From contig JAKLIQ010000002.1 of the NCBI GenBank assembly GCA_022709525.1, forward strand, positions 984 to 64,983: a stretch of 64,000 nt of DNA. The letters are read 5' to 3'. This document shows positions 31,421 to 57,193 of the stretch, one piece after another (positions within the stretch are counted from its first letter, which is position 1; each line of letters starts with the position of its first letter). Origin of the DNA: Candidatus Omnitrophota bacterium. Its GTDB lineage: Bacteria; Omnitrophota; Omnitrophia; Omnitrophales; Aquincolibacteriaceae. The translations under genes were made by a program, and so were the position numbers. The notes below the pieces were generated by a model. It was not told the origin of the DNA and did not search any database. It saw nothing but the letters and a program-made list of their open reading frames with translations.

Positions 31421-34400
31421 TTACGCCGACACTGCGAAGGCCTGGGCGGCCTCAAAGGAGGCTTTGAGGATGCTGTCAATGCTCACTCGAGTTGACCACT
31501 TAAGTGCGCGCCGAACTTTAGCGATCACTACAAATCCTTCCAGTAATGCCGCGGCTTCGTTCTCCATGGAGGAAGCGTCAGCATCCAGCTGGATAACACT
31601 GAGTTTGGCATTTTCATCCCGACGAATACCCATTTTGGCCATCTTGGATTCGACAACCGCGTCAAGGGCATCATCGGACGCAACGATCACTTCAATAGCT
31701 GCGCCAAAATCTTGCTTCGCCAGATCGGCATCGGCTTCTGATGCTACGACAACGGCAACCGTAACGCCTGTGGCTTTCTTGTCTAAGATCTTTTGAATCT
31801 CGCTCGAATCATATTTTTCCTGCCGCAATAAATACTCGCCGCGATCCCTAATATCGGCGACCGGCGTCACAATAATACCTTGACTGCGCAAAGCATCCAC
31901 AACACTCATGGTAAATTTCGCTTCCAATCCTTCGGCTTTAACGCTGGCAAGAAGATCGGGCAATGTCTCGTATTGGAACCTGATCGCTTGAGTCGAAGCG
32001 ACTGCCCGTAACGCGGCTTCCATAGCTGCCCGCTGAGCACCCGCAACTGCCGGCACCTTCGAGGCTTCGGTTACCATGTCCGGAATTTCTTTTTTCTGGA
32101 TCTCAGGAACCTCTTCCACCTCGCGAAGCTCAGCTCTCGATACGGATTCAAACTGTACGGATTCAAACCGTTGAATTTCAGCAGCAAGACGAATAGCATC
32201 AAGTTCTTGGTTTAACCGGGCAATGTTCGGTGCAAGTTGAGCGATTTTGTCCTCATCACCTTGAACCATGGCATTATCCATATCAATATTCAGCCGCTGG
32301 ATCTCTGTCTCGAGTTTCGTAATGTTCAGTTCGGATTGCACCCGCGCCAGATCGCGTTGGGCTTGAGCTAATTCCTGCTGGCGTTTCGCGATCTCCTTGC
32401 TTAAGCGGATGGATTCAGCGGTCTGGCTTGAGATCCTGCTTCTGGCACTCGTCATATCTGCGATCAAGGAACTTAGTTCCTCGATAAGATTTTTGTACTC
32501 TTTGACCTCAAAGGTAAGCGTCTCAAGCGAAGTGACCGGCTCGACCCCCGTCCTCGATTCTGAACGCGCAATGCTCTTCAAGATCGCTTCGGCTCGAGGA
32601 AGCGCTTTCAAATAATTGGCAAATTCGGCTTTCGCTTCGTTGACGATCTCTTCGCCATTTTCCGGCACGGTCACCTTGACACTCCCCTGGCCTTTTGCGA
32701 TCACATCCTTTAGCCCCTGGATCTCGTTACCGCCGTTCAATTTGAACTGCCCGGAAAACTCTTCCGGAAGGCCCGCGATATAAACTCCTAAGCTGATTAG
32801 TTCCCGATCGCTAAGATCGCTCACCTTCAGATCGTAAGTTTTGAAAGCCGTGACATCCAACATCACGCCTAAACGCCCTTTTTGATTCCAGATCGCCTGA
32901 GCGTTGGCTTTGGCGCGAAGAAGCAGATACGGAGCGGTTACAAGCGCAACGACCGTGGGAGGCTTGGCAAAATTGGTTTTATCCACCACAAGCTTCTCGG
33001 TATTCTCCATATTTTCGAGCGTGGTTTTTGAAGGAACCGCTTCCCGGCTCATGGCGGATAACGGAACGCCTTCTTGTTGCAAAATATAAGCCATAATATC
33101 CACCTCGGTATTCCAAGATTTGACCGCTTCCTCAATCTTGGCGTCCTTAGTCCGGTAGTAAACGAACGCGGCTTCCTTAAGAGGCTGATACCCTCTCCCT
33201 TCGCGGCCACCCGTCAAAATGATCGGGGCCTTCTTCTCAGATTTCAGCCAATAATCAGCAAAAAGCGCGTAGGCCCTGACATCCGGCGCACCGAGCAAAA
33301 CAAAGACATCGGCCGGCCATTGATCAAAAACATCGCCTTGCGAAAGCATATCGACCAATTCCTGGAGTTTATCCGTAAATTGTTTCCTGATTTCCGCCAA
33401 GGTTTTTGGCTCTGAAACTTTGGCGTTTTTCATGGCTTCGCGGATCATAACTTCAGCGGCATCGATATTCTGCCAAAACACTATTGGCTGTATCTTTTTC
33501 TTAATACGCGATGAGGGTTGAAAAACATAATGACCCTTTTTATCAAGTGCTTGAACAGGAGCCGGAATATTTTCAGGATTCACAACCGCACGGAAATGCG
33601 TCATAAGCGCCATGAGATACTGCAACCGGGCATCATCCGTCGATGCATTACTAATAAAAACAGCGAAGGCCGAAGAGAACGCGCGCGGATTTGGACTCAT
33701 AAGCGCGGCTTCGATGGCCTGATATTCTTCAAGTTGTGCAGCCAATTCCGGATGCTCCTGTTTCACCTTCGCGATCTCCGCGCTCAGGACGGCATAACTA
33801 GAAATGCCGACACTCCGATTCAACCAATCCCCAAGCGTCTTGACCGGCTGGACGGGAGGGGCGACTTTTTCGACTGGTAGAGGCGCCGGTCTTGTAGCCT
33901 CTTCTCTCGCCTTTTGCGTAGCTTCAGCGGCTTTGCGGATTTTTTCTTTTTCAGCGGCAATTCTAGCTTCCGCGATTATGTCCTCAGCAGCTTTTTGAGA
34001 TGTTTTGTTTTGTTCGTTTAAAGCGGCGATTTTGGCGTCAAGTTGTTCATTCTTCGGGATATTCCCGAGAGTTTCATTAAGCTTTCGGATAACCGAACTC
34101 ATCTCCGCATTCACCTTCGCCAATTCAGACTGCAGGGCTTCCAATGACATCCCGGCCATATCTTTCGCACCTCGCACTTCCGACCTGCCTTCCCGGATCC
34201 TCTTAGCGATTTCTTCAGCTAACAACTTTTGGCGCTCGGCTAAAGCGTCGAGTTTCTTCCCAACTTGCTCGACCGCTTGCATAAGTTTGGCTTGAGCCTC
34301 TTTTTCAACTTCTGGTATTTGAACTAGCTGTTCTTGAACAACAGTTTCGACCACAGGCGCTAGCGGCGGCTCTGGGCCTCGCTCAATTTCTCGAGGATTT

Positions 34401-37400
34401 TCATCGGTATCTCGCTTTAGAGCAATGGGCTCTCCCCACAGTTTATGAAAAAGCCAAAATCCAAATCCCACAAGACTGAAAACGAGCATGCCTACAACCA
34501 AAACCGTCTGCGGTAACATAAAAGCAGGTGTATTTCCCTGTAAAACAGCTGAAAATAGCGGCGGAGCACCATCAGAAAGCATTTGTGAAGAACCTGCAAT
34601 GAACAACGAACCCTTAATGATTTTGGCCATTATGATGGCAAGGATATGCTGGGTGGTCCAATGATAAAAAACAAGCCCTGTGGCCCCCATAATTGCTACG
34701 CCAAGACCCCAAGTTAGCCATTGAGCCGCTCTTTGAGGCAAAAGATAGCCGCCTAAGAAATTTCCTAATGGCGCCAAGGCAAAACCGAGAATCAAAGTAC
34801 TTGCCAAAAGATACCAAGCGGTTGGAATATACAATGCTAAAAATGGAGCGGCAAAACCTATTACGGTTAACGTTAATAGGGAAAAAACCAACTGACTGCC
34901 ATGCAAACGGTAATCAAATAAAGAAAAACGTCCCTTTTCGGCCTTATCATGCTCAGCACTTAAATGTTTATTAATTCCAAACAGGCGATTCACAAAATCA
35001 ACAAGATTTGCTATCGGTTGATATATAAAACTCATGAAAAAAGCTGCGATGTAAAGTTTTATGGCAACCCAAGAACGCTTACCATAGCCTAAGCGATCAT
35101 AGGCAGTGCTTAGCTGCGAAGATTTGTAGGTTATAGTTCCATCAAATTGTTCTCCTAAGATATCTTTTTGAATCCATTGATTCTTCTCTGCCGCTTTGCC
35201 AATGTTTTGCACTATGATTCCTGAGTATAAACCTAGGGAGCTGATAACTATGCCTAGCAATAAACCGATCGTGCCACCCGCCATAGCAATAACAGGTACA
35301 GAAACAAACGAAAAACAGATTTTAGCACCTAAAATAAGCAGGAAAGCCAAAGAAACCGTAAGACCTCTACGCACATCTTCAAGTTTTACATACTGACGGG
35401 CAGCTTGTATTTCATCTTGTGAAAGTGCCGGATTCGCAGTAGCAACAGTACCATATTTATGAAAACGTCTTAGTACGATAAGATATTGAACAACCTCATA
35501 GATTCCCGTAACACGTGAGACCAAACTAAAACCCGTATATACTTTTTCAGCGATGCCAATGGGAACATCTTTAACAACCCACTTGACCGTGTCTAAGCCT
35601 CGCGTGATAAACCAGTCTCCAATTTTCAGAATAAACTTTGGCAACTTTCGTTCAACAGAGCTTGACAAGACCGGTTGTACTGGCCTATTCAAACGATTTA
35701 AAAGTGCTCCGACAAAAGTCATACCGCAAACAACAAAAAGCGTAATCGCAGTTTGGAACATAGCAGCATGAACACCCCCAAGCGCAAATAAACCAGCGAT
35801 AGTGGCTTGAGCTAATGCGATAATAAGCGTAACAGCCCAAAAATCTTTATTGAAAAGACCATGGATTTCAAAATCATTCAGGAATCTTCCGCCATGCGTC
35901 AGAGGAAAAGATTTGCCGATAAATCTCTCATATAACGCGATGATATCGTTAATAAATTTCCACTTACTCTCTTGCTCATCTTGCTTGACTAAATTCTTTG
36001 TTCTATCATCGATTCCCATCGCTTTTTCATCGGCTCGCTTCATCCGTACCGTCTTGCCCGCATAATTTGAAATCTGAATATTGGCAAGATCTTGCCAATA
36101 TTGAACCGGCATAACATCCAAGGCCTTACGACTAGCTGGGAACGGGCGTCCGAGAAACGTTAGATCGAGAACAAAATAGAAATAAATACCAAGTTGCAAT
36201 TGAAGCAGAATTTTTTTGAGACCAGTACTTGTCGTCGCTCTCTCTTGAATGCCTTTATAACTCTCAATTCGTGTGAGAAGCGTCGGCATATACTGTTTTA
36301 ATTTTTTAACATCATCCCACGTAGCGCTAACAATTTCATCTTCACCGTTAACTTTTGTTGGAATACCGTTTCCGGAATTCATCAACTGATCAAGCTGCTG
36401 TTGCGTCAAGTTACCCCCACGCTCTTTTAGCTCTTGCCCCAAAATCCTGAAAAGAATCCCCGAAAGAAGAATGGTTCGGGTATAGTAAGCTCCGTAAGGT
36501 AATCCTTTTTGCGGCTTGGACATTTCGGCTGACGATTCGGTTCTCGCAGTATATTTCCCACCGGCGCGATCGACGCCGGCAACTAGCGCATTTGCTTCCT
36601 GAAGCGAAGCATAGGATCGATGAGCAAAAACTCCGGACTCATAGTGAACCGTCGTTTTTGATTCACGATAGTCTTGTACGCCTTGTGCTAAGCCGATGTC
36701 TGGACGCAACATAAAGGCTTTCGCCTGATATCGGGTTGTTCCTGAAGTAACGTAATTGCCGCCATCGGCGGTTGTTGAAATAATGACTTTTGCTTTAAAT
36801 TTCCTTTCTTCGGCCGATCGTGTTTCGCTTCTTGTCGGTAAAAATTGACCTAATTGTGGCAGATTTCGTCTCACGGCTTCCCCATACGAAACAAAAGGTT
36901 CATCTTCTGTGGCAATGCCGGCAAAGAAAGGTTCGCTTGAAAACGGCAGGTAAAGCTCAAGAATATCTTTCGTTTCTCCGGACGCTATCATTTCAGCTTT
37001 TGCCTTTTCAGTGGCATATTTAGGCCCAACTAAGAAAATTTTCCCGCCAAGCTCCACAGGGTAGACAATGCCTTCGTCAGGATTGGAAAGCTCTCCTACG
37101 CGTTTGCCAGGAGTACCATCTTCGCCATAACCAGTGAACGCCCCCCATTTGATTACGTTATGTTCCGGTTTTCGACCACCCGGCAGATAAGCCAGGACAA
37201 CAATTTCGCTGCCTGGATGATAAACTCCTTTTTCATCGGTATAGGATAAAACACTCCAATATGGCTTCATGGCTCTTTGTAATTCGGCAAAAACACTCTC
37301 TAACAAAACGTTGCTATTATCGTCCATTGACATTTCGCGACGCTCTTGTTGCGTCCTCGCTTTCTGATATTTGGTAATTTCAGGACCGTTCACTAAAAGA

Positions 37401-49400: not shown

Positions 49401-52400
49401 GCGGCATTATAAATACCAATCCGTTCGACGCCTTTAACTAAAATCCGCGCCAACAATCGCCATTTGTTAGTATCGCGATAAAAAGTTTGCTCTTTTTTGG
49501 CTAACGAAGTTGCTCCTTTAGATTGGGCGAAAAGTTGCAGTAAAGTAGAACCAAAATAAAATATGCCAAATACAGCTGCAAGCGTCCCGAGCACCATCGA
49601 AGCAGACGCGCCTAACGCAATGGCTAGCCATGCGGCAACGCCGACCCCAATGCCGACATAGGAACCTGCGCGAACCGGAGCATCTCCATAAATATCTTTT
49701 GCGGCTTGAAAGCTTCCTTCCTGTGCTTTAAAAAAACGCTGCTGAATGACATTACTTCCGTACCAAACCACGAGAATAAGCGCAACCGGCAAAAGCGCGA
49801 GAAGAGCTCCCGAAGCTGTAAAAATTGAAAAAACAGCATAGACAGTCCCGGCTGTGATTAAGGTTTTGATGATCGCTGCCTTATCGATATTGATATACTT
49901 AGTAAAGACGGGGAAGGAAAAATAATCCGGTTGGATTAAAATGGGCTTTTCCTTGACGGGACGACCCATCACCGCATAATGCGATTTGAGAGCTTTATTG
50001 AAACCCAAAATAGCCGCTGCAAGAATAACGGCAATTCCACCCATAATAAGCGCGAAAGAAGCGGTCAAACCAAGACTTACACCGAGAATGCCGAGCGCGC
50101 CCGGGATCGCAATTGCAAACAGGGCAATACCTAACGCCACTGTGGTTACATTAAAAAGCAGGTTTAATGTAGAATAAATAATGTAAGCCCCGAGGTCGAC
50201 TGTCATTTGGACAAACGGTTTTTCGCCGGAGGGAGCCCAAAGACCCTCGATGCTTTCTTTTAATTTTGTCTGGGCGATATTTTCGGCAGAAATTTTCTTC
50301 ATGATAAGATTCTTAAAAAGAAGGATTCCCAGGAAAATAGCAACTGCACCCACAAGTATCCCCGAAATAGTCAGCAATGAAAGCGTTGTAGCGCCTGCCA
50401 CCAAAGAGGAGTTAGCTAAAAAGGCTGGGACAAATTTAAGAATGCCGGCGCTAAGGCTGCCCACGGAAACCCACTTCATAACAATGCCAAAAATCACTCC
50501 ACTCCAAATGGCAACATTGACCCCTGCCATAACTAAAATACGTGCGGCTTTTGCTTTCCCAATGGGAGCCGCAGGTTTTGGCATTTCCAATTTCGGCATC
50601 TCAAGACGGATGATGTTTTTCCTCGCGATGCTTCTAATAGAAGCCTCGACCATTCCCAAATGGAGATCGAGTTCTGTACGCATCTTCCCTTTGTAATCCC
50701 CGACACGAACCTGATCGACCGCCATTTCTATTCCGGACCCGCGGAACATTTCGGCTTTAATATCTTCCGCACGCGTAATATAAGAAGACCGTAACACATT
50801 TACTGTATCTTGAATCGACATTGCTGCCACTTCACGAACCCGTTCTAAAATCAAAGCCTGAATTGCGGCATCGACGGAAAGATCTGCGGGGGTATTTGCA
50901 AAAAGCGCAATGAGACGATTCAGCATTTCAGGATTCATCCCTTGAATAAAAGCATCTGCAAACACAAGCTCCACAACAATGCGCGCACGGGCAGTGTCAT
51001 CTTTTGCGGCCTTGAGACTGGCAAGCAGTGCGGTTTCTTTTTCGGGTGAGATTTTTATGCCTCTACTTTTTAAAAACTCGAGGGCTTCTTGAGGGGTTTT
51101 CCCTTTTAGCCCGGAGATTATTTCAGTCCGTGCGCCATAAATCACACGCTGAAATTCAGGCGAACTCAGTGCGGCATTCGCCTCAGAAATTGCGGCTTCA
51201 ATCAGCTCGTTTCGTTTCGCATTATCCCAAACAAATTCATCAAACCGATTGATATCTGCATAGGCGGCATCATCCATTTCTTCTCTTTGGGCATCGGCTT
51301 GCATTTTCTCGGCAAGGATCGTATCCAAAATGGCTACGATTTCAGATTCAAATCCGCTTAAACCAATCCCGCGCTCGAAATTGCGCGGATGCTGTTCGGA
51401 ACCGGCCTCCCACCATTTTTCCCGCCAACCTTCTCCTTTCATGGCAGCAATGCGTCCGGCCTCTTCGGCTTGATAACTTTTGCTGGGCATCCAATCTTGA
51501 ACCGTGCCGTCCTTTTGAGCGTTCTTCCTTAATTTCGCGATCAAGGCAAGAAGGGGCTTGCGGTTCGAATCGCTGACGACCTGCGATAATTTTTCAAGGT
51601 CGGCGATGGAATAATACTGCTTTACGTGACCATAGGTCCCTTCACGGCCAACGCGACCGATTAATTGATCCATAATAATTTTCAGGGTATGAATACGGGT
51701 GAGATACAATGTTAAGCCGGTCACGAGCCCTGTTTCGGGGCTAACGATTTGCTCCAGAATTCTTACGTTAATACCGCGCGTTAGCGTCGCGTCGATCAGA
51801 AGCACGTGCCCAGGTTTTCCGGCCCTGGCAAGGACTGCGCTCCGCTCATCTGCCGAAAGCGTATCGCTATAAATCTCAACTGTTATTTTTCCTTCCATGC
51901 CTCGAGCTTTAACAACTGCTTCGATCTCGGCTTTTAAAGACGCTGCATCTTGAGAATCGATATCAATAAGATGGGGACGGTCGGGATTTTCCACAACATC
52001 AGCAACCACCTCATTCATCTTTTTGATATTGCCAACAAAAAGATTGGGCTTATAAATTTCTTTCGTGTATTTAAAAAGCCCGTCAACATGTTCGACTTCA
52101 AGCCCTTGCCCTGTTGCAGCGTATTTGATAGCTAAAGCTCGATCTCCCGTGGCTGTCATCAAAACACTTCCTGCTATAGCGGGCAATTTGCTCATTTGCG
52201 CCAAACTCATCCGGCTTACCGTCTTTGTTTTAGCCTGACGCTCAAGGCCCGCTTTTTCACGCAGTGGGTTTTGAAGCTCCTGCAAATGCATTCCATACAT
52301 CGCCCGTTCGTCGCTTGAAAATGGAACGACCTCCCCGTTCACCACTATGAATTCTCGGAAAACTCTCTTTCCTTGATACTCGGAACCCATCACCTGACCT

Positions 52401-55400
52401 TTTTGAATAAAGCATTCATGCGCTGTCAGCTCAGACTCAACCATGGCTTTCCAGTGGTCGAAAGTAATGCCTTTTTCCTGGATTTTGCTCTTCTTATATT
52501 CACGACCGGCTGCCAGCGCTGCGGACCAAGTCAAAGTGACTTTGGCATTTTGGTCATCAATGGTGTAGCGATTGGTTTTTCGTTCCGTAGACGGAGCGTC
52601 CGAATTCTTTCTCAAGGTTCTCGCAAATGCCGCCGCGACTCCTTCGGCTTCAAGGAGCAATTTCGCGTTATCCGCTTCTCCGCCTGAAATAATGGCTTGG
52701 CTGGGGTCGGTAACTTCGGCTTGGTCTGCTTCATCTTTAATAAGTGCGATCTTTCCCCTGTTGCCCTCGTAATTTACAAAATGACGGCCGCCATCACTCT
52801 GTGCATAGAACTGAAATTCCTCATACCGGGCATAAACCGCATCGGCTTTACGCATGATGTAGTCGATCGGATCCTGATAATACCTTCCTTCCGCTGCTTC
52901 TCGCGTGATGTCTTCAGCGGTAATTTCGACCATGGCGCCTTTAGCGCGATTCCAAATCATGGCATGTTTGCCTTTAACATCGCTTACGATATACCCCACA
53001 TGGAATGGTTCGTCAGGGTCGGCTTGCGTGAAATATTTCTGGCTTTCGCGCGCGCCATCCTCGGCATTTTTGTCGCTATTGGTTGCTATGAACACCTTGC
53101 GGCCCGCTTGAGCTTTAAGCCAAAGATAAGTTGTCAGAATTCCGATAATGGTTTTTCCCGCGCCGGTTACGGCCAAATCTAAGATATTTTGATTTTTATT
53201 GAGCGCTTCGAGATTTTTGAGGGCGGCTTTTAATTGACCTCGCACAATACGAAAAGCAACGGCTGCAACAGCATTAAAAATCTTCTGAAGTACGAGATTC
53301 TCTGTTAGCAGAGCATCGTTATCCTGAACTTCCTGATCGTGATCTTTTACATCAATTACCTCGACGGGCTTAACCTCTTCAGGTTTTGCGACTTCTGCGG
53401 TGGGCTGAGCTTCAACTTTAGGGGCTTCCTCGACTTTAACAGCTTCGGTTGCTGGTTTTGCTTCTTCAACTGGCTCGGCAACAGCTTGTTTTGCTCCTTT
53501 AATGGGCTTAGCGTAGTGTGCGACGGCATAAGGACTAAGACGCATGGTATAGGTGTTAAGCGACACATCATTCTCATAAAGAAGCCAAATCTGCTTCTCA
53601 ATATGTTCAGCGCTGTGATTCAGGAGTAAGTGTTTAATGAACGGCTCAAAAGAACGCTGGGAAAGAATGGTCAAAACGCGATCTTTTTGTTCTTGTGAAT
53701 ATGTCGTATCACCGCGAATTCTTCCTCCCACATTCGCAAGCGCAACCAGCTTGTCTCGAAGGGTTGGAAACTCTATGGCATTCCCGTCTTTTCTGTATGC
53801 AAAACGCAAAAAGAGAATGTCTTTGGGTTCAAAATCTGGTTTTTCAGGATCGAGCAATATGGATCTCAGCGCATCAATCTTCTCTTTGATATCTGTGCTC
53901 TTGAGAAGCATCGCCTTGAATTTTGCATCCCTAAGGTTCTCGAATGTTCCTTCGCCAAAGGCATCCTCCATAAGCTTATGATTTTTTGTTACGAGATCAG
54001 AAACCGGCTGGATCATCGGCGGCTGAGCTTCTTCCACCGCTCGGGCCTCGGAACGGGTGCGAATCGAAGCGCCTTCAAGACTTCCCTTGACGAGATAAAA
54101 CGACACGACACGTCCGTCCTGGGCGGGAATTGATCCGCGCCTGCCGGGGACAACTCCGGTCACCTCCGGTTTTTTGTTGGGCTCATGCAGGACAAACACG
54201 ATGTCATGCCTATTCCCCGCAAAAATCCGCAGCGACGGATTTCCGTTAATCGTCGTATCAGATTTAGGATCAAACTTGGCTAAAAACTTTTTTAGTTCGC
54301 CTAGCGCTTTTTTCTCTTCGACGGTAGCGCTTCCATCAAGCTGCGAAAGTCTGTCTTCCATATCGTTAAAAACGCGAATCCGGTCCGGTCCTTGCGCAAG
54401 TAAAAGAGTTTCCGCAATCACAAGAGGGAAATAAAAGACCTCCATCCGAAGCTGCGAAAAATCCAGCGTCTGTCCTTCAGAAAGGATCATGCGCCATGCA
54501 GCCAATTGAAACCGCGGGTCATTCAGGACCGGCGACTTAGGCTGGAGGAAGGCCTCCGAAAGGACCTGCTCGATCGGGAGCGGGGTTTCGCGCAAAGCGG
54601 CGTCATAAAGCGCGCTTTCTTTCTTCTTATCGATGGTCTTGGTGATGCGCGGAGCGACTACTATATAAGAGATGTCCTTCTCGCGAAGGTATTTCTCGAT
54701 ACCGGGCGTATGGAAACCGCCGGTCACGATAGCGGATATCTTCTGCCCGCTTGAAAGGGTTTTCTCAACCGCTCGCTCGATCAGTACCTGGTCGCGCTCG
54801 AGAGCGGCTTTATAGAAGCGCTCCACACGCGGCAGATCCTGATCGAGGTACTCCACTTGGGACGGCAATCCGTAGGTGAAGTGGTACTTCTGCATGAGCG
54901 GTTTGAGAAAACTGACGAATGTTGCGGACTTGAATTCATCCTGATAGGTGTAGAAGAATTCAGCATCCTGCTTGGTAAGCGTGAAATCGAACATTTTGCT
55001 GTAGATATCATAAATGCGGAGGATGTGGTCGAGCTGGACTTGTTCGGGGGTGGTCAAGAGTTTGCTTTTGACGGTCTTTTCGAGGAATTCGATCTCATCA
55101 AAGATCGAGACATCGATCGCGTCATAAAGTTTCATGTACCGGATATAGGCGATCACATTCGCGTATTTGGCGTTCAGGTCTTCCCCGCCGGTCTGCGTCA
55201 CGCTTAATCCCTTGATCTCATCTTCCAGATAACCGTAATAAGCGGCGCGTTTCATTTTCTTCATGCGGAAGTGGACGGTGTTGGTAAGGAAACGGGACAG
55301 TTTTTCGCGGGAGAGCATGCGCTTCAGGTCGTTGATCAGCTCATCGGTCTCTTTTTCGGCCTTCTCAAAATCGACCTGCTTTTCAAGATCGACCAGCTGA

Positions 55401-56191
55401 AGAAGCGAATGCATGCCGGGATATTCATCGAGCGCGATATTGTGGCTGCGGCCAAGCTCGACGAGATAGCGGACGTAAGCGACCAACTCCGGTCCGCCTT
55501 CCTGGAACGCGCTGCGGCGGCGGATCAGCTCGCGCATTTCATCGGAAAAAACAAAGCGGGTTACTCCCTCGAGAGCCTTGTTCAAGCCGGCCAGGACTTT
55601 CTCGTCCCGGTCTTTGAACTGAAGCGCGTCGACATAGGCCTGACGGTTCTCCTCGTAAAGCTCCTTATCTTCGACGCCATAAAGCGTCATGACGGGCTTT
55701 TCGACGATGGCCAGATATTCGGGCCCAGTGAGGCGCCCTTCTTTCAGGAAATAATCCGCGACATTGCGCCGCGCTTCTTTGTTCGGGAAGAAAGAAAAAA
55801 GTTCCGTGTAAAGTTCGCCGGAAGCGCCCTCAAGATTGACAAGTCCGAGCTGATATTTTTCGGAAAAGTAGCGGAGGATATTGGCGATATTGCGCTGGGC
55901 TTCTTCGTTGATGTGCGCGTCCTGAACATGAAGAACGACATGGTCCCGGTTTCCTTGGAAACTCGCTTTGACCGTCCCGTAGCTTTCCGGAAGATCCGGG
56001 CGTTCGACTAACGACGCGATGGTATTAATTTGTGAGGATTGAACGGAGGCGAGATTCCCGGGTTTTGCGGCCGCGGCGTAAGCATTGGCGCCGCCATCCC
56101 AGACAACCGAAGTGAAGGTAAACACAAAAACCGTAATAAAAGCTACGGTCCGTAGCCACGGCTTAAAGCTATGTGTTTGCCAGCTGATCAT
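31421..56191 (-). CDS. Giant multidomain membrane protein (8256 aa). Architecture: signal/anchor; conserved N-domain shared with the 2815-aa paralog; SecA/SF2-like ATPase; TM cluster 1; Pro/Gly linker; long coiled coils; TM cluster 2 (20 or more helices); C-terminal coiled-coil and alpha/beta region.
   Basis: Single uninterrupted 24,771 bp ORF. ATG at 56191 with gagagga about 10 nt upstream. N-terminus MISWQTHSFKPWLRTVAFITVFVFTFTSVVW. Walker A LAVTGAGKT, then KDEADQ, MTATG and DATLTRGINV. Hydrophobic clusters at about 49130-50560 and 34430-38260. All plus-strand ORFs inside are short and antisense. Confidence 0.9.
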   Translation of the reverse strand: MISWQTHSFKPWLRTVAFITVFVFTFTSVVWDGGANAYAAAAKPGNLASVQSSQINTIASLVERPDLPESYGTVKASFQGNRDHVVLHVQDAHINEEAQRNIANILRYFSEKYQLGLVNLEGASGELYTELFSFFPNKEARRNVADYFLKEGRLTGPEYLAIVEKPVMTLYGVEDKELYEENRQAYVDALQFKDRDEKVLAGLNKALEGVTRFVFSDEMRELIRRRSAFQEGGPELVAYVRYLVELGRSHNIALDEYPGMHSLLQLVDLEKQVDFEKAEKETDELINDLKRMLSREKLSRFLTNTVHFRMKKMKRAAYYGYLEDEIKGLSVTQTGGEDLNAKYANVIAYIRYMKLYDAIDVSIFDEIEFLEKTVKSKLLTTPEQVQLDHILRIYDIYSKMFDFTLTKQDAEFFYTYQDEFKSATFVSFLKPLMQKYHFTYGLPSQVEYLDQDLPRVERFYKAALERDQVLIERAVEKTLSSGQKISAIVTGGFHTPGIEKYLREKDISYIVVAPRITKTIDKKKESALYDAALRETPLPIEQVLSEAFLQPKSPVLNDPRFQLAAWRMILSEGQTLDFSQLRMEVFYFPLVIAETLLLAQGPDRIRVFNDMEDRLSQLDGSATVEEKKALGELKKFLAKFDPKSDTTINGNPSLRIFAGNRHDIVFVLHEPNKKPEVTGVVPGRRGSIPAQDGRVVSFYLVKGSLEGASIRTRSEARAVEEAQPPMIQPVSDLVTKNHKLMEDAFGEGTFENLRDAKFKAMLLKSTDIKEKIDALRSILLDPEKPDFEPKDILFLRFAYRKDGNAIEFPTLRDKLVALANVGGRIRGDTTYSQEQKDRVLTILSQRSFEPFIKHLLLNHSAEHIEKQIWLLYENDVSLNTYTMRLSPYAVAHYAKPIKGAKQAVAEPVEEAKPATEAVKVEEAPKVEAQPTAEVAKPEEVKPVEVIDVKDHDQEVQDNDALLTENLVLQKIFNAVAAVAFRIVRGQLKAALKNLEALNKNQNILDLAVTGAGKTIIGILTTYLWLKAQAGRKVFIATNSDKNAEDGARESQKYFTQADPDEPFHVGYIVSDVKGKHAMIWNRAKGAMVEITAEDITREAAEGRYYQDPIDYIMRKADAVYARYEEFQFYAQSDGGRHFVNYEGNRGKIALIKDEADQAEVTDPSQAIISGGEADNAKLLLEAEGVAAAFARTLRKNSDAPSTERKTNRYTIDDQNAKVTLTWSAALAAGREYKKSKIQEKGITFDHWKAMVESELTAHECFIQKGQVMGSEYQGKRVFREFIVVNGEVVPFSSDERAMYGMHLQELQNPLREKAGLERQAKTKTVSRMSLAQMSKLPAIAGSVLMTATGDRALAIKYAATGQGLEVEHVDGLFKYTKEIYKPNLFVGNIKKMNEVVADVVENPDRPHLIDIDSQDAASLKAEIEAVVKARGMEGKITVEIYSDTLSADERSAVLARAGKPGHVLLIDATLTRGINVRILEQIVSPETGLVTGLTLYLTRIHTLKIIMDQLIGRVGREGTYGHVKQYYSIADLEKLSQVVSDSNRKPLLALIAKLRKNAQKDGTVQDWMPSKSYQAEEAGRIAAMKGEGWREKWWEAGSEQHPRNFERGIGLSGFESEIVAILDTILAEKMQADAQREEMDDAAYADINRFDEFVWDNAKRNELIEAAISEANAALSSPEFQRVIYGARTEIISGLKGKTPQEALEFLKSRGIKISPEKETALLASLKAAKDDTARARIVVELVFADAFIQGMNPEMLNRLIALFANTPADLSVDAAIQALILERVREVAAMSIQDTVNVLRSSYITRAEDIKAEMFRGSGIEMAVDQVRVGDYKGKMRTELDLHLGMVEASIRSIARKNIIRLEMPKLEMPKPAAPIGKAKAARILVMAGVNVAIWSGVIFGIVMKWVSVGSLSAGILKFVPAFLANSSLVAGATTLSLLTISGILVGAVAIFLGILLFKNLIMKKISAENIAQTKLKESIEGLWAPSGEKPFVQMTVDLGAYIIYSTLNLLFNVTTVALGIALFAIAIPGALGILGVSLGLTASFALIMGGIAVILAAAILGFNKALKSHYAVMGRPVKEKPILIQPDYFSFPVFTKYINIDKAAIIKTLITAGTVYAVFSIFTASGALLALLPVALILVVWYGSNVIQQRFFKAQEGSFQAAKDIYGDAPVRAGSYVGIGVGVAAWLAIALGASASMVLGTLAAVFGIFYFGSTLLQLFAQSKGATSLAKKEQTFYRDTNKWRLLARILVKGVERIGIYNAAAIAIFVAPVVGLVFKVGISGAWVTTSLQVMMTLAPALPILGMAGGVLIAFLAVNAFYAARKNKAAAIHTFGGKDLLKWVGALGGVSMFMSLGAQSAQAAPEVMRSVDAETLVRQRELGEDLAALLGTTTPEQIEQMDEAEREAFIAALTAKAGAFYQATGATPSISKEVEAKRIELLEEIQGNLPQVSTNRIELESAVRQATTLPMLQILAQRVASAVAALPIATTTVTPAAVNASSQASQAVTQAQVAEATPTQIPEKTPIKPEIPGEPTLPPTGPGGGGGGPGPTGPGGGPGGSDILPPTVPPPSGTPGIFLEKRKEETTAKKEVAGATATSGLMGGAAEMTSKSPFAVEFLPVPEDIGDALEEAKNQNLDVLIALKTYEMAMAHMRAFQLYRRWFQADLKGSWSIFTREKIITQDKTTTTTSQSINFPYAWYAGPDGSIQLGSPTYAQAGAPSTAALEGTDTTGEPVPGDAEAISLVNTETGQDEGVDLVATTTHPEEGTPAYEEHGPDIVPTGAKDPSSTGRWILSGVNSISDDTVINLPDTPPITAGVLEQRLQEILTSPGFWKAVEMSPVSPAEVATNPAYQQAFYWASYYAAQYDKIKNDFSGASLSEIMEALGKHRELIDKKLQRDHPLDPVNNPSDNWLVEYYAKVDLDPDLNVEELYEERDKSLELSLRFEVYNSIRSWLEGQFGAEEKLAKLAFKAFQNSAMGEVLGYYGQLGRLNAEIKIINARIADLQNAVKFWTNLEGVEDDLGIIRIFEAKIASAVADRGNLEKEQRDYIRRIKESLGRSQIAAFTTPLEVITLDSLRGHAERLGINDEFIDIALSEILTQLEKGAAQKRPAADVSVATPAMSADVLMIAEYYTIGSPFTVHVLQADAGWKSTNLFDAQVDDAKFEFLAQQVAQRIREFWDLQQLMTLDYANKKESLTDFRDQLALVNSTITKLEKNPEVVALLRYRKTPDEKGIMPKEAMEYLAALEKRGRLEQNIERTELAILRMELQLKTLDEVKSKILKELEDRKDKNKERFEIFKQALEKAYVSEDAFLKTDVLAQVEEAKAIAPILAERKTFENLASIVAEGSTSQLTLGQQEAGVTDVRYHVPEVLRVGLRAGYGISYGNVSSDNLNSIFEDYDWQDWEWNLSIYLRATLFNPAYFSGAYGAEQAFSREEAERQYEYRKLALIHNIETYQNVIQMLVGQLKNAQDNRDTKKVIREGILAKLEEEKADTKGNAPYYHYEIELASADESIKEMDIKIKGLEYLIAKTMLEWKSLTLGTHRSIKEAYDDAKGMPLPPKKVLTPEEEAQQPVPLYRVPLWESDEALRAAPLDPFARLLDAEGNIDLQKLQAFQRSLDNLIDKFDKAEKGLDSWWSRHFVSRDIRELEKKELKSVKAQLVEARDWLKQAQNENLSKGARLTRLGQSFFTALRAQNDYLRSKFLEYHGELFLHEEFENSRNAIAAASDAPELKAILSRFAAQWRQQSYIKILKLWKWEGGLQVGYGLKNKLSPVIPFFNGIAYGANRFLNWSKIGKPAAQVLTRRVYNILDEIERLSTDSQNLAIWQDSDLNRLEREASPLVDHFSFLVEEEKHIRNLCDAVEQWGVNIEGRIQVGELEQDANRIFDRDETTIDRYKVIRFELNEKLKKLETDRTMTEAQLRAHMVFDYELIRQEAAKKVDDRKTLDQMAREHPAVQVAFLEKELKAFEAREKTHRWSGIEIRGFLDNPVNPLSSLEAFEEERAPYDNAIVADVNPVETLLNLQGRKYRIVLKNAGEKAQIALESQLGNLNQALFDYETERIVTEALTPMEQAQVANLKQLMKSAQRLNTLTNLEDFEVSQIVRNRALAELEAEEALNRAKMQLLTVMGIRDASVYIFELSKGVESDTLSKETLSFTDELLPGMDWEEFFKNSPVMKQYQSALEIAGVERLEILSQLSTFWVRAGVIDDQDDLTIGKDLRVWGGNFREDWETKKLEQARIQFQGLKQRHSLERQYLELLDSFGTTAQEALNRQESVTMLTQAWQKAVKENQATDNEGLDSIASLTYQVQSANLAFHFAYRTHLSVVMQLARFEQQHKLSREAVSATQKAVTPLEEEFAGSLPAEPAKPAVSAPEQVSLSEFSRMKFTHTVEQIDGSRLLYPDLADDAVLLMNALNMPSDPYLQNVVGNVIGRVGDRFKRFTTANGQFSETNTQPLVAGLKFDDEKNITAGLLNPGETLDRSWGIPWRTSYAAPADVQDALVSGDPAKGKKGFDFERVGFWDYQTQFANRIYNQTSMRTTLNLLTREDAQQWVRELAASLKDAKESLDQFYRKDFLPYSINSPNEFGTIFAWAFYAKRYGKTVEEALKDDSFRGKVELMLPTFNLNKTWGSIFDANISKGDRDPDYFMGQLAYSYFRGTVDKNGTLTPYQSNATQRKEEANIQATIAALRGVGAPAEQWPLIGYIIARLRNAMKDYTPLTDDEILKYPGAYIARQAKLLLKRFDSGELNGSFDTMSAEDLLKHYPLFFQSGEGKSLRENYQKASPEERLALDKTVHDYFKKSYRAELETRYAENIEEVRIGVEIGRAMGILPTILYGSGYASYEVEEREEWMRVDVLERLVKTEQLLKIAFKINESIKWNLNEDPENRIGRLIAIAREVGLEDNTWAEFFDKEGNAVDLPLIHMLFHNILSNEGVKRINEYLINTDRSRLYTSKDLRTRQGDVIALARELALSMKKGELGKEVPKTEAKAQQQVLDEIKQILTRRETIYQAAKNNNILVKREDLKYEDEVLQELKTKLPGLTAEQYYRWVRFVLDSRNTAGENLIRELDGYLSNPSEKPFWMSLGEAKRIRNFIEGTDGIPGLKADMYSEDQAKAWLAELIRNREISATNAEVTLNDILQRTQIEMYLQAAHMLYHVGDDGMPKRLQTGDLAAYSRIVMIREGFSKEQKDGKTAREFYAQLLKLDGLFSAALEGKKLKNNPYQEIAVDYPQLLSNELTRLGIPRDKDWATQNSFQMPRDKIIGMLSRLLEMQQWDYQYAPKTPEGVLQMVYYWVQDAALIEALIYKNHDYFVPYETLDGFIKYARKGEPVIHPTLGKILEREFRTSLFFDADLRGLGEGVFPKSGETVNLDDLRAIRKMYKLIFQQDLPVDELPASDHRKPLQSLWWAEKFSQIDVMMKGAGLSFAETSAARYEFMIEMRRAYEIFLQTTFYNISTPEKLSARHKDVDADMSHFIEQWANNYIKTYLAEKARKEKFESGQLAARDVEIAKNRKALRGAREQRLDEISKRLTQGEVDYAAIHKEKIAEIKAAIEALNQMTLFKGNPIKLDLRQIKMFADQMLSQGYSAGEVVLLRGYIRPHIVAAIEKIQNVKLDLSDVSTIAKVDNWALQVLDRAGGADKLDAIYREIEAFEKLQVLEKSVSDHFNNIEKQIREQAGESFTLFDTAKTRESEITRISSDAFNKDIDQAKVDSWFDLAWELYQAHHKVNSGSRPDFFRMLYTADGLLDLGIAASVPASEWQNPEIQTVMQNTLGWIFGEKSTVNPYSFLPEGVTPQSKDARQYARNAFEGKDTLEGILYKKWKADPTLKEKMLRELLERIQFLMKRKGGLEPVDLYEFNDRLMQNYQRLINHYYQGQHEGFQQQDLPKPSLISPLTLLVLADLQNPDPAKRIGVLDILFPNYDEQGILLLDDYGNSSLAAASRRLDTQFADHYSPVSESEKTWLSKILRFDNKTRPFQRVFLLGIILAAIAFLIRAIRYLFIDPYPLFNKRDAAERQSAYARRLGDFRIALAKFVMSSLSWTNVLLFLATIQPYSVAFNPLVVFSVALLYKILYDNLSYLPTFIAPARWKGVVQAFAMGALTIVGFKLFAHVSLSAGFGTFFLAYPIALVPIAAMVLLVILTLPSVDRQGGLVEVSQVQGGHPELEESELDKIDNEIHRIYEREQGGVDVTEEKASLRRQLNIFDINDHVYQTGLNGERVPFAEEGQLVADVCPVKISSVEDDMIDAVKAAARNVLGNLLKQKRSVLLVNGPEITKYQKARTQQERREMSMDDNSNVLLESVFAELQRAMKPYWSVLSYTDEKGVYHPGSEIVVLAYLPGGRKPEHNVIKWGAFTGYGEDGTPGKRVGELSNPDEGIVYPVELGGKIFLVGPKYATEKAKAEMIASGETKDILELYLPFSSEPFFAGIATEDEPFVSYGEAVRRNLPQLGQFLPTRSETRSAEERKFKAKVIISTTADGGNYVTSGTTRYQAKAFMLRPDIGLAQGVQDYRESKTTVHYESGVFAHRSYASLQEANALVAGVDRAGGKYTARTESSAEMSKPQKGLPYGAYYTRTILLSGILFRILGQELKERGGNLTQQQLDQLMNSGNGIPTKVNGEDEIVSATWDDVKKLKQYMPTLLTRIESYKGIQERATTSTGLKKILLQLQLGIYFYFVLDLTFLGRPFPASRKALDVMPVQYWQDLANIQISNYAGKTVRMKRADEKAMGIDDRTKNLVKQDEQESKWKFINDIIALYERFIGKSFPLTHGGRFLNDFEIHGLFNKDFWAVTLIIALAQATIAGLFALGGVHAAMFQTAITLFVVCGMTFVGALLNRLNRPVQPVLSSSVERKLPKFILKIGDWFITRGLDTVKWVVKDVPIGIAEKVYTGFSLVSRVTGIYEVVQYLIVLRRFHKYGTVATANPALSQDEIQAARQYVKLEDVRRGLTVSLAFLLILGAKICFSFVSVPVIAMAGGTIGLLLGIVISSLGLYSGIIVQNIGKAAEKNQWIQKDILGEQFDGTITYKSSQLSTAYDRLGYGKRSWVAIKLYIAAFFMSFIYQPIANLVDFVNRLFGINKHLSAEHDKAEKGRFSLFDYRLHGSQLVFSLLTLTVIGFAAPFLALYIPTAWYLLASTLILGFALAPLGNFLGGYLLPQRAAQWLTWGLGVAIMGATGLVFYHWTTQHILAIIMAKIIKGSLFIAGSSQMLSDGAPPLFSAVLQGNTPAFMLPQTVLVVGMLVFSLVGFGFWLFHKLWGEPIALKRDTDENPREIERGPEPPLAPVVETVVQEQLVQIPEVEKEAQAKLMQAVEQVGKKLDALAERQKLLAEEIAKRIREGRSEVRGAKDMAGMSLEALQSELAKVNAEMSSVIRKLNETLGNIPKNEQLDAKIAALNEQNKTSQKAAEDIIAEARIAAEKEKIRKAAEATQKAREEATRPAPLPVEKVAPPVQPVKTLGDWLNRSVGISSYAVLSAEIAKVKQEHPELAAQLEEYQAIEAALMSPNPRAFSSAFAVFISNASTDDARLQYLMALMTHFRAVVNPENIPAPVQALDKKGHYVFQPSSRIKKKIQPIVFWQNIDAAEVMIREAMKNAKVSEPKTLAEIRKQFTDKLQELVDMLSQGDVFDQWPADVFVLLGAPDVRAYALFADYWLKSEKKAPIILTGGREGRGYQPLKEAAFVYYRTKDAKIEEAVKSWNTEVDIMAYILQQEGVPLSAMSREAVPSKTTLENMENTEKLVVDKTNFAKPPTVVALVTAPYLLLRAKANAQAIWNQKGRLGVMLDVTAFKTYDLKVSDLSDRELISLGVYIAGLPEEFSGQFKLNGGNEIQGLKDVIAKGQGSVKVTVPENGEEIVNEAKAEFANYLKALPRAEAILKSIARSESRTGVEPVTSLETLTFEVKEYKNLIEELSSLIADMTSARSRISSQTAESIRLSKEIAKRQQELAQAQRDLARVQSELNITKLETEIQRLNIDMDNAMVQGDEDKIAQLAPNIARLNQELDAIRLAAEIQRFESVQFESVSRAELREVEEVPEIQKKEIPDMVTEASKVPAVAGAQRAAMEAALRAVASTQAIRFQYETLPDLLASVKAEGLEAKFTMSVVDALRSQGIIVTPVADIRDRGEYLLRQEKYDSSEIQKILDKKATGVTVAVVVASEADADLAKQDFGAAIEVIVASDDALDAVVESKMAKMGIRRDENAKLSVIQLDADASSMENEAAALLEGFVVIAKVRRALKWSTRVSIDSILKASFEAAQAFAVSA
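48465..48640 (-). other. Pro/Gly-rich low-complexity linker (PTGPGGGGGGPGPTGPGGGPGG...PPTVPPPSGTPG) in the giant protein
   Basis: Read directly. Explains the antisense Gly/Pro ORF at 48465..48662. Confidence 0.6.
51700..53200 (-). other. SecA-like / SF2 DEAD-motif ATPase module within the giant protein
   Basis: Order and spacing of the motifs: LAVTGAGKTIIG (Walker A, about 53160), ALIKDEADQAEVTDPSQAIISG (about 52730; compare SecA ILIDEARTPLIISG), VLMTATGD (about 52160; compare SecA GMTGTA), HVLLIDATLTRGINV (about 51775; compare SecA ATNMAGRGTDI). Confidence 0.5.
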
Positions 56192-56219
56192 CGGATTGCC
56201 GTCCTCTCTTAAAGCTGAT

Positions 56220-56560
56220 TAATACTTTGAATGCTGTAAGGAAAAAGGTTCATAATGTAAAACTTATTTTAAATGCTTATAAACCTCAATAGAAATATAC
56301 ACAGTGACCCTCACGAAGTCAAGGAAACCTAAAAAAATTTTAATGCTGTAACCCATTATTTAAGATATGGTTATGATAATATTAAAAAAAATTTTAGATT
56401 AGTTTGACTTATTTTATATTCCTTATAGCAATATATAGCGTATTAAAAGTCGTATTTTTAAATACAAAAAAGGCCAAATCAGTAAACAATTTTATCTATT
56501 TAATAAAAAGTCTTTTGAAATCAACACTTTGAGAAAACAAAGTCGTGGGTCTGGAGAAAA
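56220..56560. promoter_or_regulatory. Extremely AT-rich (about 25% GC) upstream region of the giant gene
   Basis: Strong compositional contrast with the 55-60% GC genes. Analogous to the AT-rich block upstream of the paralog (14784-14940). Confidence 0.4.
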
Positions 56561-57156: not shown

Positions 57157-57193
57157 CCGATTTTGAGCAAAAAATTAGAAAGCAGGACGCGTA

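Follow-up and report, generated by a model that had tools for sequence, protein, structure and literature searches.

The 64,000-nt window analyzed here, the whole stretch of Omnitrophota DNA under study, carries on its minus strand one open reading frame (31421..56191) that spans 24,771 nt and encodes 8256 amino acids plus a stop codon. The frame begins with an ATG codon, and approximately 11 nt 5′ of this codon is a Shine-Dalgarno-like sequence, AGAGAGGA (56202..56209, minus), that is itself preceded by an AT-rich stretch of approximately 360 nt. The site also adjoins a tRNA-Ala. The first-pass annotation of this DNA had placed the frame at the correct coordinates, leaving its strand unstated, and had described it as a single uninterrupted ORF. 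Indeed, translation of the 8,256 codons gives only one stop, at the 3′ end, and an open frame of this length cannot be the product of chance in DNA of 42-54% GC.

The same frame can be followed into other assemblies. Residues 1-2,691 are 100% identical to an NCBI protein from a Candidatus Omnitrophota MAG, and a public contig of 12,580 nt (L007) is 100% identical to window positions 48119-60698, such that the identity extends from 4.5 kb upstream of the start codon to aa 2691. Close homologues of the protein are nearly all from Omnitrophota. Among the relatives, P0004 aligns collinearly with aa 1-2324, and the open frame of P0121/L002 does so with aa 3214-5838. L003, a single open frame spanning 7,136 codons (>21 kb), is collinear with aa 2851-7249 and passes as well through the tail of the first membrane block and the linker that follows it. 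L003 also shares with the giant protein a Pro/Ala linker and the second and third membrane blocks, called B and C below. The fact that diverged relatives keep collinear frames open makes an assembly artefact very unlikely, and on this comparative sequence evidence the giant ORF is a genuine, uninterrupted gene.

At the N terminus is a hydrophobic segment identified by hydropathy (aa 12-31; 56099..56158, minus), where a signal or anchor had been expected and which could act as either a signal peptide or a signal anchor. Positively charged K10 and R14 come before it and an A-N-A sequence after it, and with this positive n-region the N terminus resembles a classical Sec signal peptide. Most homologues that carry the domain that follows have an equivalent hydrophobic segment before it. 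This domain, which we call the head (aa 60-560; 54512..56014, minus), corresponds to the conserved N-domain of the first-pass annotation. It measures approximately 500 to 550 aa and fronts at least 149 other large proteins, which carry many different enzyme domains.

The AF2 model of the head (pLDDT 88) has a parallel β-sheet core with helices on its flanks, as is characteristic of the TIKI superfamily, and this α/β core is split by an all-helical insertion of approximately 300 aa. Across 24 sequences with identities as low as 23%, no substitution occurs at H93, E121, R466, or H494, and D91 is nearly invariant. The 28 residues from H93 to E121 equal the His-to-Glu spacing of Bcr135 (H85/E113) and RRSP (H3902/E3930), and R466 and H494 are likewise 28 residues apart, compared with 29 for R4001/H4030 of RRSP (PMC6254334). 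The Pfam model for ChaN/Tiki (PF04187) gives below-threshold matches to four of the 24 head sequences (best E = 5.7e-4) and to the head-bearing P0109 (3.5e-4), and that for TraB (PF01963) matches one of the 24, also below threshold (E = 0.055). None of the curated models PF01963, PF04187, and PF05139 reaches threshold with the head of the giant protein, a Foldseek search of the PDB with the head model returned nothing significant, and an hhalign comparison with Escherichia coli YbaP was mis-registered and uninformative. A match of the head profile to troponin C (E = 0.005) lies in the helical insert and reflects chance or generic helical similarity. Taken together, the predicted structure and the aligned residues place the head in the TIKI/TraB/erythromycin-esterase/ChaN fold with conserved catalytic-type residues of the pattern D/E-x-H...E...R...H. 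This fold assignment appears to be new, and a TIKI-like identity for the head is absent from two preprints on Omnitrophota giant proteins (West-Roberts 2023, bioRxiv 10.1101/2023.11.21.568195; Nielsen & Lui 2026, bioRxiv 10.64898/2026.06.07.730766).

A second copy of the head is present in the window (13206..14549, minus; HMM E = 8e-88), where it forms the N terminus of a 2839-aa ORF (6264-14783), itself one of the large head-bearing proteins, and is 26% identical by BLAST to the head of the giant protein. The boundary between the head and the remainder of the protein, or body, falls at aa ~565-585 (54437..54498, minus), where homology to the syntenic relative L001 stops, GC3 falls from 0.65 to 0.46, and host-like codon composition ends; the homology and the codon composition both break off at aa ~571-585. 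GC3 shifts again near aa 7300. The drop behind the head recurs in ORF2 and, less strongly, in L001, and therefore characterizes the family rather than one join. In L001, a 1297-aa head ORF overlaps a 7903-aa body ORF by 13 nt, and the P0002 contig carries a 1414-aa ORF followed by one of 7753 aa. Given that these two relatives encode the head as a separate ORF directly upstream, head and body probably work together yet need not be fused. The stand-alone head proteins have C-terminal transmembrane (TM) helices, as does PrgY. This discontinuity between head and body also appears to be new.

The SecA/SF2-like ATPase noted at first pass proves to be a divergent SecA-like module (aa ~985-1560; 51512..53239, minus) located directly upstream of the first membrane block. 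A sequence search of the PDB matched only SecA, through three collinear motifs. Walker A (TGAGKT, aa 1009-1014) and DEAD (aa 1153-1156) of NBD1, and motif VI (QLIGRVGREG) of NBD2, stand in the order found in SecA. A two-sequence profile matches SecA with E = 5e-7 and takes in the motif at the end of the preprotein-binding domain (PPXD). DEAD is followed by an insert of approximately 170 aa, the end of which shows weak alignment to SecA residues 313-380. In Pfam, the region gives a weak ResIII match, and relatives with the same head score as SecA_DEAD, SecA_PP_bind, and P-loop_SecA; SecA_PP_bind itself is found in P0036 and P0037 but not in the giant protein. In P0036, approximately 400 aa separate the SecA domains from a TM block downstream. 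Between the giant protein and P0004, which are only 24-28% identical overall, Walker A, DEAD, and motif VI are all kept, and comparison of aa 1540-1890 with SecA revealed no match to the helical scaffold, wing, or C-terminal linker. By sequence, then, the protein contains a SecA-like ATPase composed of NBD1, a PPXD-like insert, and NBD2 directly before its first membrane block.

Hydropathy predicts approximately 27-29 hydrophobic helices, distributed among the N-terminal segment and three membrane blocks. Block A (aa 1885-2360; 49112..50539, minus), for which about ten helices had been claimed, has 11-12 as judged by hydropathy and loop K/R content, and its last helix is followed by AQSAQA|AP, an A-x-A motif. 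The second TM region of 20 or more helices described earlier does exist, but as two blocks totaling ~15-16 helices around a 640-aa domain. These are block B (aa 5976-6145; 37757..38266, minus), with five helices here and five at the equivalent place in L003, and block C (aa 6786-7250; 34442..35836, minus), with approximately 10-11 by hydropathy. Loops rich in K/R alternate in blocks A and B with loops that contain none. By the positive-inside rule, the ATPase and aa 6146-6785 are probably inside and aa 2361-5975 outside, whereas the side of the last 1,000 aa turns on the counting of one weak helix. Between the N-terminal segment and the ATPase there is no convincing TM helix, the best candidate being aa 581-599 (hydropathy 1.47). 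At face value, this absence and the signal-peptide-like N terminus would make both head and ATPase extracytoplasmic, and there is no ATP outside the cytoplasm.

The predicted extracytoplasmic region (aa 2361-5975; 38267..49111, minus) comprises approximately 3,600 aa and is collinear with L003 and with P0121/L002. Near its start is the Pro/Gly linker reported at first pass (aa ~2505-2575), with a Pro/Gly run at aa 2537-2560. The coiled-coil-like middle proposed for the protein is retained in part: a heptad heuristic marks 8-42% of the sub-regions of aa 2621-5975, but the remainder is mixed helix and strand and there is no continuous coiled coil. A helix-rich segment (aa 3330-4350; 43142..46204, minus) contains four β-hairpin-like motifs that are conserved in a four-sequence alignment (aa ~3375-3420, 3755-3785, 3975-3995, and 4198-4225), and its AF2 model, with a pLDDT of only 42.7, consists mostly of helices of up to 70 residues. 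The best-conserved part is aa 4511-5975 (38267..42661, minus), which is 30-33% identical to two orthologues; it contains no known domain, and a profile of aa 4500-5980 gave nothing significant against the PDB.

The 640-aa soluble domain between blocks B and C (aa 6146-6785; 35837..37756, minus) is predicted to be cytoplasmic, is 34% identical to L003, carries the motif RKPxHNVIKWGAFTxYGEDGT, and has no match in the PDB or Pfam. A reading of its motifs by eye as a GT48/FKS1-like glucan synthase likewise finds no support in either database. The coiled coil and α/β region anticipated at the C terminus are represented by coiled-coil-like segments marked by the heptad heuristic at aa 7294-7436 (33884..34312, minus) and aa 7886-8016 (32144..32536, minus), the latter with weak matches to SMC, ASRP, and crescentin, and by a DUF218 domain (PF02698; aa 7629-7767; 32891..33307, minus) that scores 34.6 bits (threshold 27.6; E = 2.1e-8). 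DUF218 is the sole family above curated threshold in a Pfam and NCBIfam scan of the entire protein. The C-terminal region (aa 8017-8256; 31424..32143, minus) contains no known domain, and the last 697 aa gave nothing significant against the PDB.

Word-indexed homologue searches with aa 5971-8256 and aa 3301-5200 returned nothing, an exhaustive HMMER search of 1.84 billion representatives with aa 3301-4400 found a single match, and genome and metagenome scans with the body each found one locus. Pfam matches nothing in the orthologues L003 and P0004, and there are no internal repeats in the giant protein at E ≤ 1e-3. The body is fast-changing and resembles almost nothing in the databases, and the alignments demonstrate at the sequence level that diverged orthologues retain its order in open frames.

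We consider it probable that this locus is one genuine Omnitrophota giant gene encoding a multi-pass inner-membrane protein with a conserved head, a fast-evolving body, and a self-exporting motor. In this model, for which we infer catalysis, ATPase activity, export, and localization, the SecA-like motor, a putative ATPase, would stay in the cytoplasm and drive export of the protein's own ~3,600-aa segment after block A. Membrane proteins depend on SecA for their large periplasmic loops, and here the motor would be supplied in cis. The exported portion, helix-rich and with its four β-hairpin motifs, would form an envelope or surface structure, and the 640-aa domain would face the cytoplasm. The head would most likely be an active hydrolase, either a peptidase or an esterase, acting in the maturation or processing of this protein or of a partner. 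Self-export has been proposed previously for SecA-like domains of this type (West-Roberts 2023).

That the gene is instead an artefact of assembly or gene calling, with neighboring genes, or fragments from more than one genome, fused into a single frame, is scarcely credible. The public contig of the region has only ~4x coverage and ends inside the gene, GC3 shifts sharply at aa 585 and again at aa ~7300, and two relatives carry the head separately, all of which would suit such joins. However, the aa 585 junction lies within a stretch where an independent contig is 100% identical, single open frames of orthologues cover aa 1-2324 and aa 2851-7249, with that of L003 continuous through the tail of block A and the linker, the GC3 drop recurs in ORF2 and L001, and a chimera would require two in-frame mis-joins. 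It is very doubtful that the protein is a single-chain trans-envelope conduit whose four β-hairpins and long helical hairpins (aa 3330-4350) enter the outer membrane in the manner of TolC. This segment lies within the predicted extracytoplasmic region, its four hairpin motifs are kept in four sequences at ~20% identity, and behind motifs 1 and 4 the low-confidence model shows helices as long as 70 residues; yet the AF2 model is unreliable and lacks a sheet, there is no Pfam OEP match, a profile search of the PDB found no TolC or outer-membrane-factor structure, and hhalign against TolC and CusC gave a probability of 0.2%. A TolC-like channel, as read by eye, is thus unsupported by the PDB sequence and profile searches, by hhalign, and by the model.

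Two further alternatives concern the fate of the head. It is unlikely that the chain is a polyprotein, cut (possibly by the TIKI-like head it carries) to yield the head, motor, envelope, and C-terminal parts of a multi-subunit machine, but this reading would be consistent with the intact TIKI-type catalytic set, with the inclusion of RRSP and Tiki among TIKI site-specific endopeptidases, with the adjacent head and body ORFs of relatives, and with the A-x-A motif behind block A. Cleavage by N-terminal C39 or S8 peptidases has been raised for other giants (West-Roberts 2023). Against this, no cleavage sites or products are known, and since esterases and a haem-binding protein share the TIKI fold, the fold does not imply peptidase activity. 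We regard as distinctly unlikely the possibility that the N terminus is a true signal peptide, such that the head, along with the metabolic enzymes attached to it in other members, is exported and the SecA-like module is no cytoplasmic motor. The appearance of the N terminus and the PrgY-like TM helices that end stand-alone heads favor this possibility, and an extracytoplasmic location is typical of TIKI-fold relatives such as TraB/PrgY, ChaN, GumN, and Tiki. Moreover, a signal peptide together with TM helices is predicted in 39% of long Omnitrophota proteins, multi-enzyme ones included (Nielsen & Lui 2026). The preservation of Walker A, DEAD, and motif VI at 24-28% overall identity to P0004 argues, however, for a working and hence cytoplasmic ATPase, and many head-bearing proteins contain ATP-, PEP-, or sugar-phosphate-dependent enzymes with no further TM helix.

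Beyond the self-exporting membrane protein that we favor, a broader proposal, tentative and with the chances leaning against it, is that the TIKI-fold head, as a membrane-targeted hydrolase, is the putatively catalytic, defining module of an undescribed system, with interchangeable large bodies fused behind it or encoded directly downstream and possibly translationally coupled. If so, the bodies would include multi-enzyme chains and SecA-driven envelope proteins across Omnitrophota, Elusimicrobiota, and neighboring phyla, and would be swapped, or evolve very rapidly, while the head in front of them stays fixed at a conserved chromosomal position, with the head responsible for processing or activating any body attached to it. 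Such a system would resemble MARTX and polymorphic toxins, wherein conserved delivery or processing modules are combined with variable cargo.

Omnitrophota giant genes are a recognized puzzle, being abundant in ultra-small, host-dependent bacteria and having few annotated domains and no known mechanism. The previously unannotated N-terminal region now has a concrete fold and a candidate active site (TIKI-type His/Glu/Arg/His). Because a large family of big proteins, unrelated in other respects, carries this head, and because its evolution is uncoupled from that of the body, the head offers a handle with which giant proteins can be cataloged, classified, and probed, for example by mutagenesis of the four residues. 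The agreement across assemblies also indicates that such long frames are real.

The class to which the protein belongs is already known, as giant ORFs in Omnitrophota were reported by Kizina 2022, as relayed in Seymour 2023 (PMC10066038), and the suggestion that the gene is typical of them is justified by phylum, size, TM helices, SecA-like ATPase, and scarcity of domains. At 24,771 nt it exceeds the >20 kb used for the class (Seymour 2023), its ~27-29 helices (by hydropathy) match the numerous TM helices of members, and its divergent SecA-like module, with DEAD and a PPXD-like insert, lacks a detectable scaffold or wing, as in the domains described by West-Roberts 2023. Its 8,256 aa fall short of the catalog cut-offs of >30,000 aa (West-Roberts 2023) and ≥10,000 aa (Nielsen & Lui 2026). 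As in other Omnitrophota giants, there is approximately one TM helix per 300 aa, annotated domains are few, conservation is poor, and the N-terminal region carries no annotated domain. By Pfam and NCBIfam, which report DUF218 only, it has none of the glycosyl transferases and hydrolases, methyltransferases, peptidases, or NUDIX domains of Archaeovorin-type giants, and by Pfam and its lack of internal repeats it differs from dockerin-type giants with their dockerin and TSP3 repeats. It instead resembles the 15% "Pfam-dark" fraction, and is an almost entirely unannotated but otherwise ordinary member.

The individual modules also have known counterparts. DUF218, the SanA-YdcF-ElyC family, is here a single small domain close to the C terminus of a giant protein, and is present as well in the head-bearing P0109. 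The ATPase shares with SecA, in the same order, Walker A TGxGKT, DEAD followed by ...IISG, IVxxGEVV at the end of the PPXD, and motif VI QLxGRxGRxG, but lies within a membrane protein, with a TM block immediately after it, and scores under the Pfam SecA thresholds. With the TIKI superfamily (Tiki, TraB/PrgY, GumN, ChaN, erythromycin esterases, HopBA1, RRSP, and PMT C1-C2), the head has in common D/E-x-H, a Glu at +28, and an Arg/His pair 28 residues apart, and with TraB/PrgY and Tiki a membrane association. Its first motif is Q-D-A-H, compared with G-S-I-H in the E. coli TraB-family protein YbaP. Unlike the known members of this superfamily, the head has its core split by the long helical insert and stands at the N terminus of proteins ranging from 1,100 to >8,000 aa.

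The giant ORF (window 31421..56191, minus strand) is a single real gene. The first-pass annotation had described one uninterrupted reading frame, and the ORF listing and translation agree, giving 8,256 codons with an ATG start and a sole stop at the end; an open frame this long cannot have arisen by chance. Residues 1 to 2,691 match, at 100% identity, a partial protein from a Candidatus Omnitrophota MAG, whose source, a 12,580-nt contig (ENA ERZ795054 NODE_3388, ~4x coverage), matches window 48119 to 60698 with zero mismatches and ends within the giant gene. A Shine–Dalgarno-like AGAGAGGA lies ~11 nt 5′ of the ATG, and a ~360-nt AT-rich stretch directly upstream (window 56220–56580; the genome is 52–56% GC) is presumably a promoter or regulatory region.

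Ordinary chromosomal genes flank the gene, with NAD synthase, Ogt, ArgS, MiaA and HflX downstream and an alpha/beta hydrolase, an AMP-binding enzyme, a thiolase and a patatin upstream. The same chromosomal region holds a gene for a LysM and N-acetylmuramoyl-L-alanine amidase protein, a peptidoglycan hydrolase (window 20267–21073, minus strand). A 961-aa ORF (21180–24065, minus strand) joins transaldolase and phosphoglucose-isomerase domains in a bifunctional TAL-PGI fusion. Long ORFs antisense to real genes, for example those of 928 aa opposite PFOR (1239–4025), 474 aa opposite TAL-PGI (22536–23960) and 371 aa opposite the AMP-binding gene (58153–59268), all on the plus strand, are regarded as spurious effects of base composition.

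The protein begins with a hydrophobic segment (aa 12–31) that, with K10 and R14 ahead and A-N-A behind, looks like a signal peptide or signal anchor. The head domain that follows (aa 60–560) retains invariant H93, E121, E158, E174, R466, G-G-F-H494 and P514 in an alignment of 24 homologues reaching down to 23% identity. We conclude that the head is probably a TIKI-fold domain, and these intact, catalytic-type residues follow the pattern and spacing of the TIKI superfamily. Specifically, E121 lies 28 residues after H93 of D91-x-H93, as E113 does after H85 in Bcr135 and E3930 after H3902 in RRSP, and R466 and H494 are 28 residues apart, versus 29 for R4001 and H4030 in RRSP (PMC6254334). The Pfam model for ChaN/Tiki gives sub-threshold matches to four of the 24 members and to a further homologue, P0109, and TraB to one member; none of the curated Pfam models reaches threshold on the head. 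The AlphaFold2 model (pLDDT 88, pTM 0.76) has an alpha/beta core interrupted by a helical insertion of ~300 aa, and a Foldseek search against the PDB returned no significant match. The insert itself (aa ~176–480) matches Pfam DUF1722 below threshold in six of 24 members (best E = 5.5e-5), and a weak match of the head profile to troponin C (E = 0.005) was seen in connection with it. A TIKI-fold head would be a putative active hydrolase.

The head defines a family wider than the giant ORF. At E ≤ 1e-5, a search recovered at least 149 protein clusters, and among the matches listed these came from Omnitrophota, Elusimicrobiota, Auribacterota, Chlamydiota and other MAGs, the head being N-terminal in all and preceded by a hydrophobic segment in most. 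The domains behind it vary widely and include phosphomannomutase, GGDEF, SecA, glucan phosphorylase, protein kinases, PTS EI/HPr, M48 peptidase, UbiB, HEAT repeats and DUF218. A second member lies in the window itself: ORF2 (6264–14783, minus strand; 2,839 aa) carries a TIKI-like head at window ~13206–14549 (minus strand; head HMM E = 8e-88), and a Pfam scan of it found no family at E ≤ 0.001.

Conservation of the head does not extend into the body. In the syntenic contig L001, upstream genes are 64–81% identical to those of the window at the protein level and the head is 84% identical (80% in nucleotides), with homology detectable only as far as window 54498 (~aa 565) and different sequence beyond. 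There, the head is a separate 1,297-aa protein (L001 10001–13894) ending in three TM helices, and its ORF overlaps by 13 nt a 7,903-aa ORF (13882–23894) with GDPGP1 domains. Likewise, on the contig of the relative P0002, a 1,414-aa head ORF is separated by 78 nt from a 7,753-aa ORF. In both of these close relatives the separate head ORF has C-terminal TM helices, and the giant ORF behind it differs in content. Further upstream, L001 (1–1842) carries two PilZ-domain genes, a YajQ gene and a SPOR gene; the window ends before the equivalent region. Conservation of pilZ genes near giant genes has been reported (West-Roberts 2023, bioRxiv 10.1101/2023.11.21.568195).

The break is seen in codon composition too. 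GC3 in the giant ORF is 0.65 to aa 585, 0.33–0.48 from there to ~aa 7300 and ~0.53 beyond, with change points at window ~54437 (aa 585; 0.65 to 0.46) and ~34290 (aa ~7303; 0.37 to 0.53). The head thereby resembles the housekeeping genes of the window (0.62–0.68), whereas the body does not. In ORF2, GC3 falls from 0.66–0.69 to 0.39–0.53 after ~aa 600, and L001 exhibits a weaker drop after its head. Judged by sequence, the head is decoupled from the body.

A break of this kind could be read as the seam of an artefactual fusion, which we consider very improbable. The GC3 break recurs in three genes (the giant ORF, ORF2 and L001), and the pattern is therefore no evidence for a mis-join. Moreover, open frames of diverged relatives preserve the order: P0004 matches aa 1–2324 (33% identity), P0121 (contig L002, from an Omnitrophota MAG) matches aa 3214–5838 (23–33%), and L003, 21,410 nt taken from a 210-kb metagenome contig, is a single frame of 7,136 codons, open at both ends and collinear with aa 2851–7249 (22–30%). 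At matching positions L003 encodes the tail of a hydrophobic block, a Pro/Ala linker, a five-helix block and a later multi-helix block. Given a genuine gene, the discontinuity fits fast evolution of the body under AT-biased mutation with a strongly constrained head, and it also fits replacement of bodies through recombination. A tRNA-Ala(CGC) gene (57081–57156, minus strand), ~890 nt before the start of the giant gene, could anchor recombination at this locus; it is 100% identical in L001, where flanking genes are ~73% identical in nucleotides.

Behind the head, a small domain conserved in close relatives only (aa 561–720) and a charged linker with abundant Ala, Pro, Glu and Lys (up to aa 984) lead to the motor. 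The SecA/SF2-like ATPase recognized in the first-pass annotation holds up: SecA proteins are the only PDB sequence matches of aa 985–1560, through the collinear motifs TGAGKT, DEAD then ...IISG, and QLIGRVGREG. A profile of the giant ORF and P0004 retrieves six SecA entries from the PDB at E = 5e-7, with the end of the preprotein cross-linking domain also aligned; the next family is RecQ5 (E = 0.05). The helical region right behind the motor (aa 1561–1880) has no SecA scaffold match, and SecA-like domains of giant proteins likewise lack this scaffold (West-Roberts 2023). TM block A (aa 1885–2360) follows with 11–12 helices, where about 10 had been expected. Its K/R-rich loops alternate with short K/R-free ones, and the ATPase is therefore predicted to be cytoplasmic and the chain beyond the last helix to be outside.

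Directly after that helix the chain reads AQSAQA|AP. The predicted extracytoplasmic region (aa 2361–5975) has the anticipated Pro/Gly linker at its beginning, as a Pro/Gly run (aa 2537–2560). By a heptad heuristic with calibration against local shuffles, 20–42% of aa 2621–4400 scores as coiled-coil-like, as does only ~10% of aa 4401–5975, so the earlier coiled-coil-like label for the middle is only partly right. In a four-sequence alignment of the region, four conserved motifs resembling beta-hairpins lie between long helices. Its last part (aa 4511–5975) is the best conserved of the body (30–33% identity) and matches no known family or structure. The predicted second block of at least 20 TM helices resolves into two blocks: B (aa 5976–6145, five) and C (aa 6786–7250, about 10–11). 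Between them lies a predicted cytoplasmic soluble domain (aa 6146–6785; 34% identity to L003, motifs strongly conserved) with no relatives found in Pfam or the PDB. The C-terminal region (aa 7251–8256), whose membrane side depends on one weak helix in block C, comprises the expected coiled coil as two heptad-scored segments, DUF218 (aa 7629–7767; 34.6 bits against a threshold of 27.6), which is the sole Pfam family above threshold, and, last, a stretch lacking known domains. Cysteines number five in 8,256 residues, with none in the head or most of the predicted extracytoplasmic region, and no internal repeats were found in the whole protein. An exhaustive HMMER search of aa 3301–4400 against 1.84 billion representatives gave one match, and word-indexed searches with aa 3301–5200 and 5971–8256 gave none. 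The body is almost an orphan.

The ATPase lies directly before a TM block, and P0004 and P0036 share this arrangement. Large periplasmic loops of membrane proteins need SecA. We propose that the cytoplasmic motor would drive the 3,600-aa segment behind block A of the same protein across the membrane; self-export has been suggested for such SecA-like domains (West-Roberts 2023). The exported, helix-rich segment may form an envelope or surface structure, contact with host cells being what is usually proposed for Omnitrophota (Seymour 2023, PMC10066038). Most likely, the head would hydrolyze a peptide or ester bond in maturation of the giant protein or a partner. Since relatives encode the head separately and adjacently, even overlapping the body ORF in L001, it would work with the body without needing fusion. 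The main weakness of this mechanism concerns the location of aa 1–1,880: the N-terminus resembles a signal peptide of the cleavable kind, and between it and the ATPase no credible TM helix was found.

Giant ORFs of Omnitrophota have been described as poorly conserved, with many TM helices and divergent SecA-like domains but few annotated domains (PMC10066038; bioRxiv 10.1101/2023.11.21.568195; bioRxiv 10.64898/2026.06.07.730766). The first-pass placement in this class is supported, as TM helices, SecA-like domain and scarcity of annotated domains all match, and the product is a smaller, Pfam-dark member that fits neither the Archaeovorin nor the Dockerin type. The preprints of West-Roberts 2023 and Nielsen & Lui 2026 make no TIKI, TraB, ChaN or erythromycin-esterase link for the N-terminal region. 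For a kind of protein that is already known, the fold assignment of the head, the breadth of its family and the discontinuity between head and body therefore appear to be new annotations.
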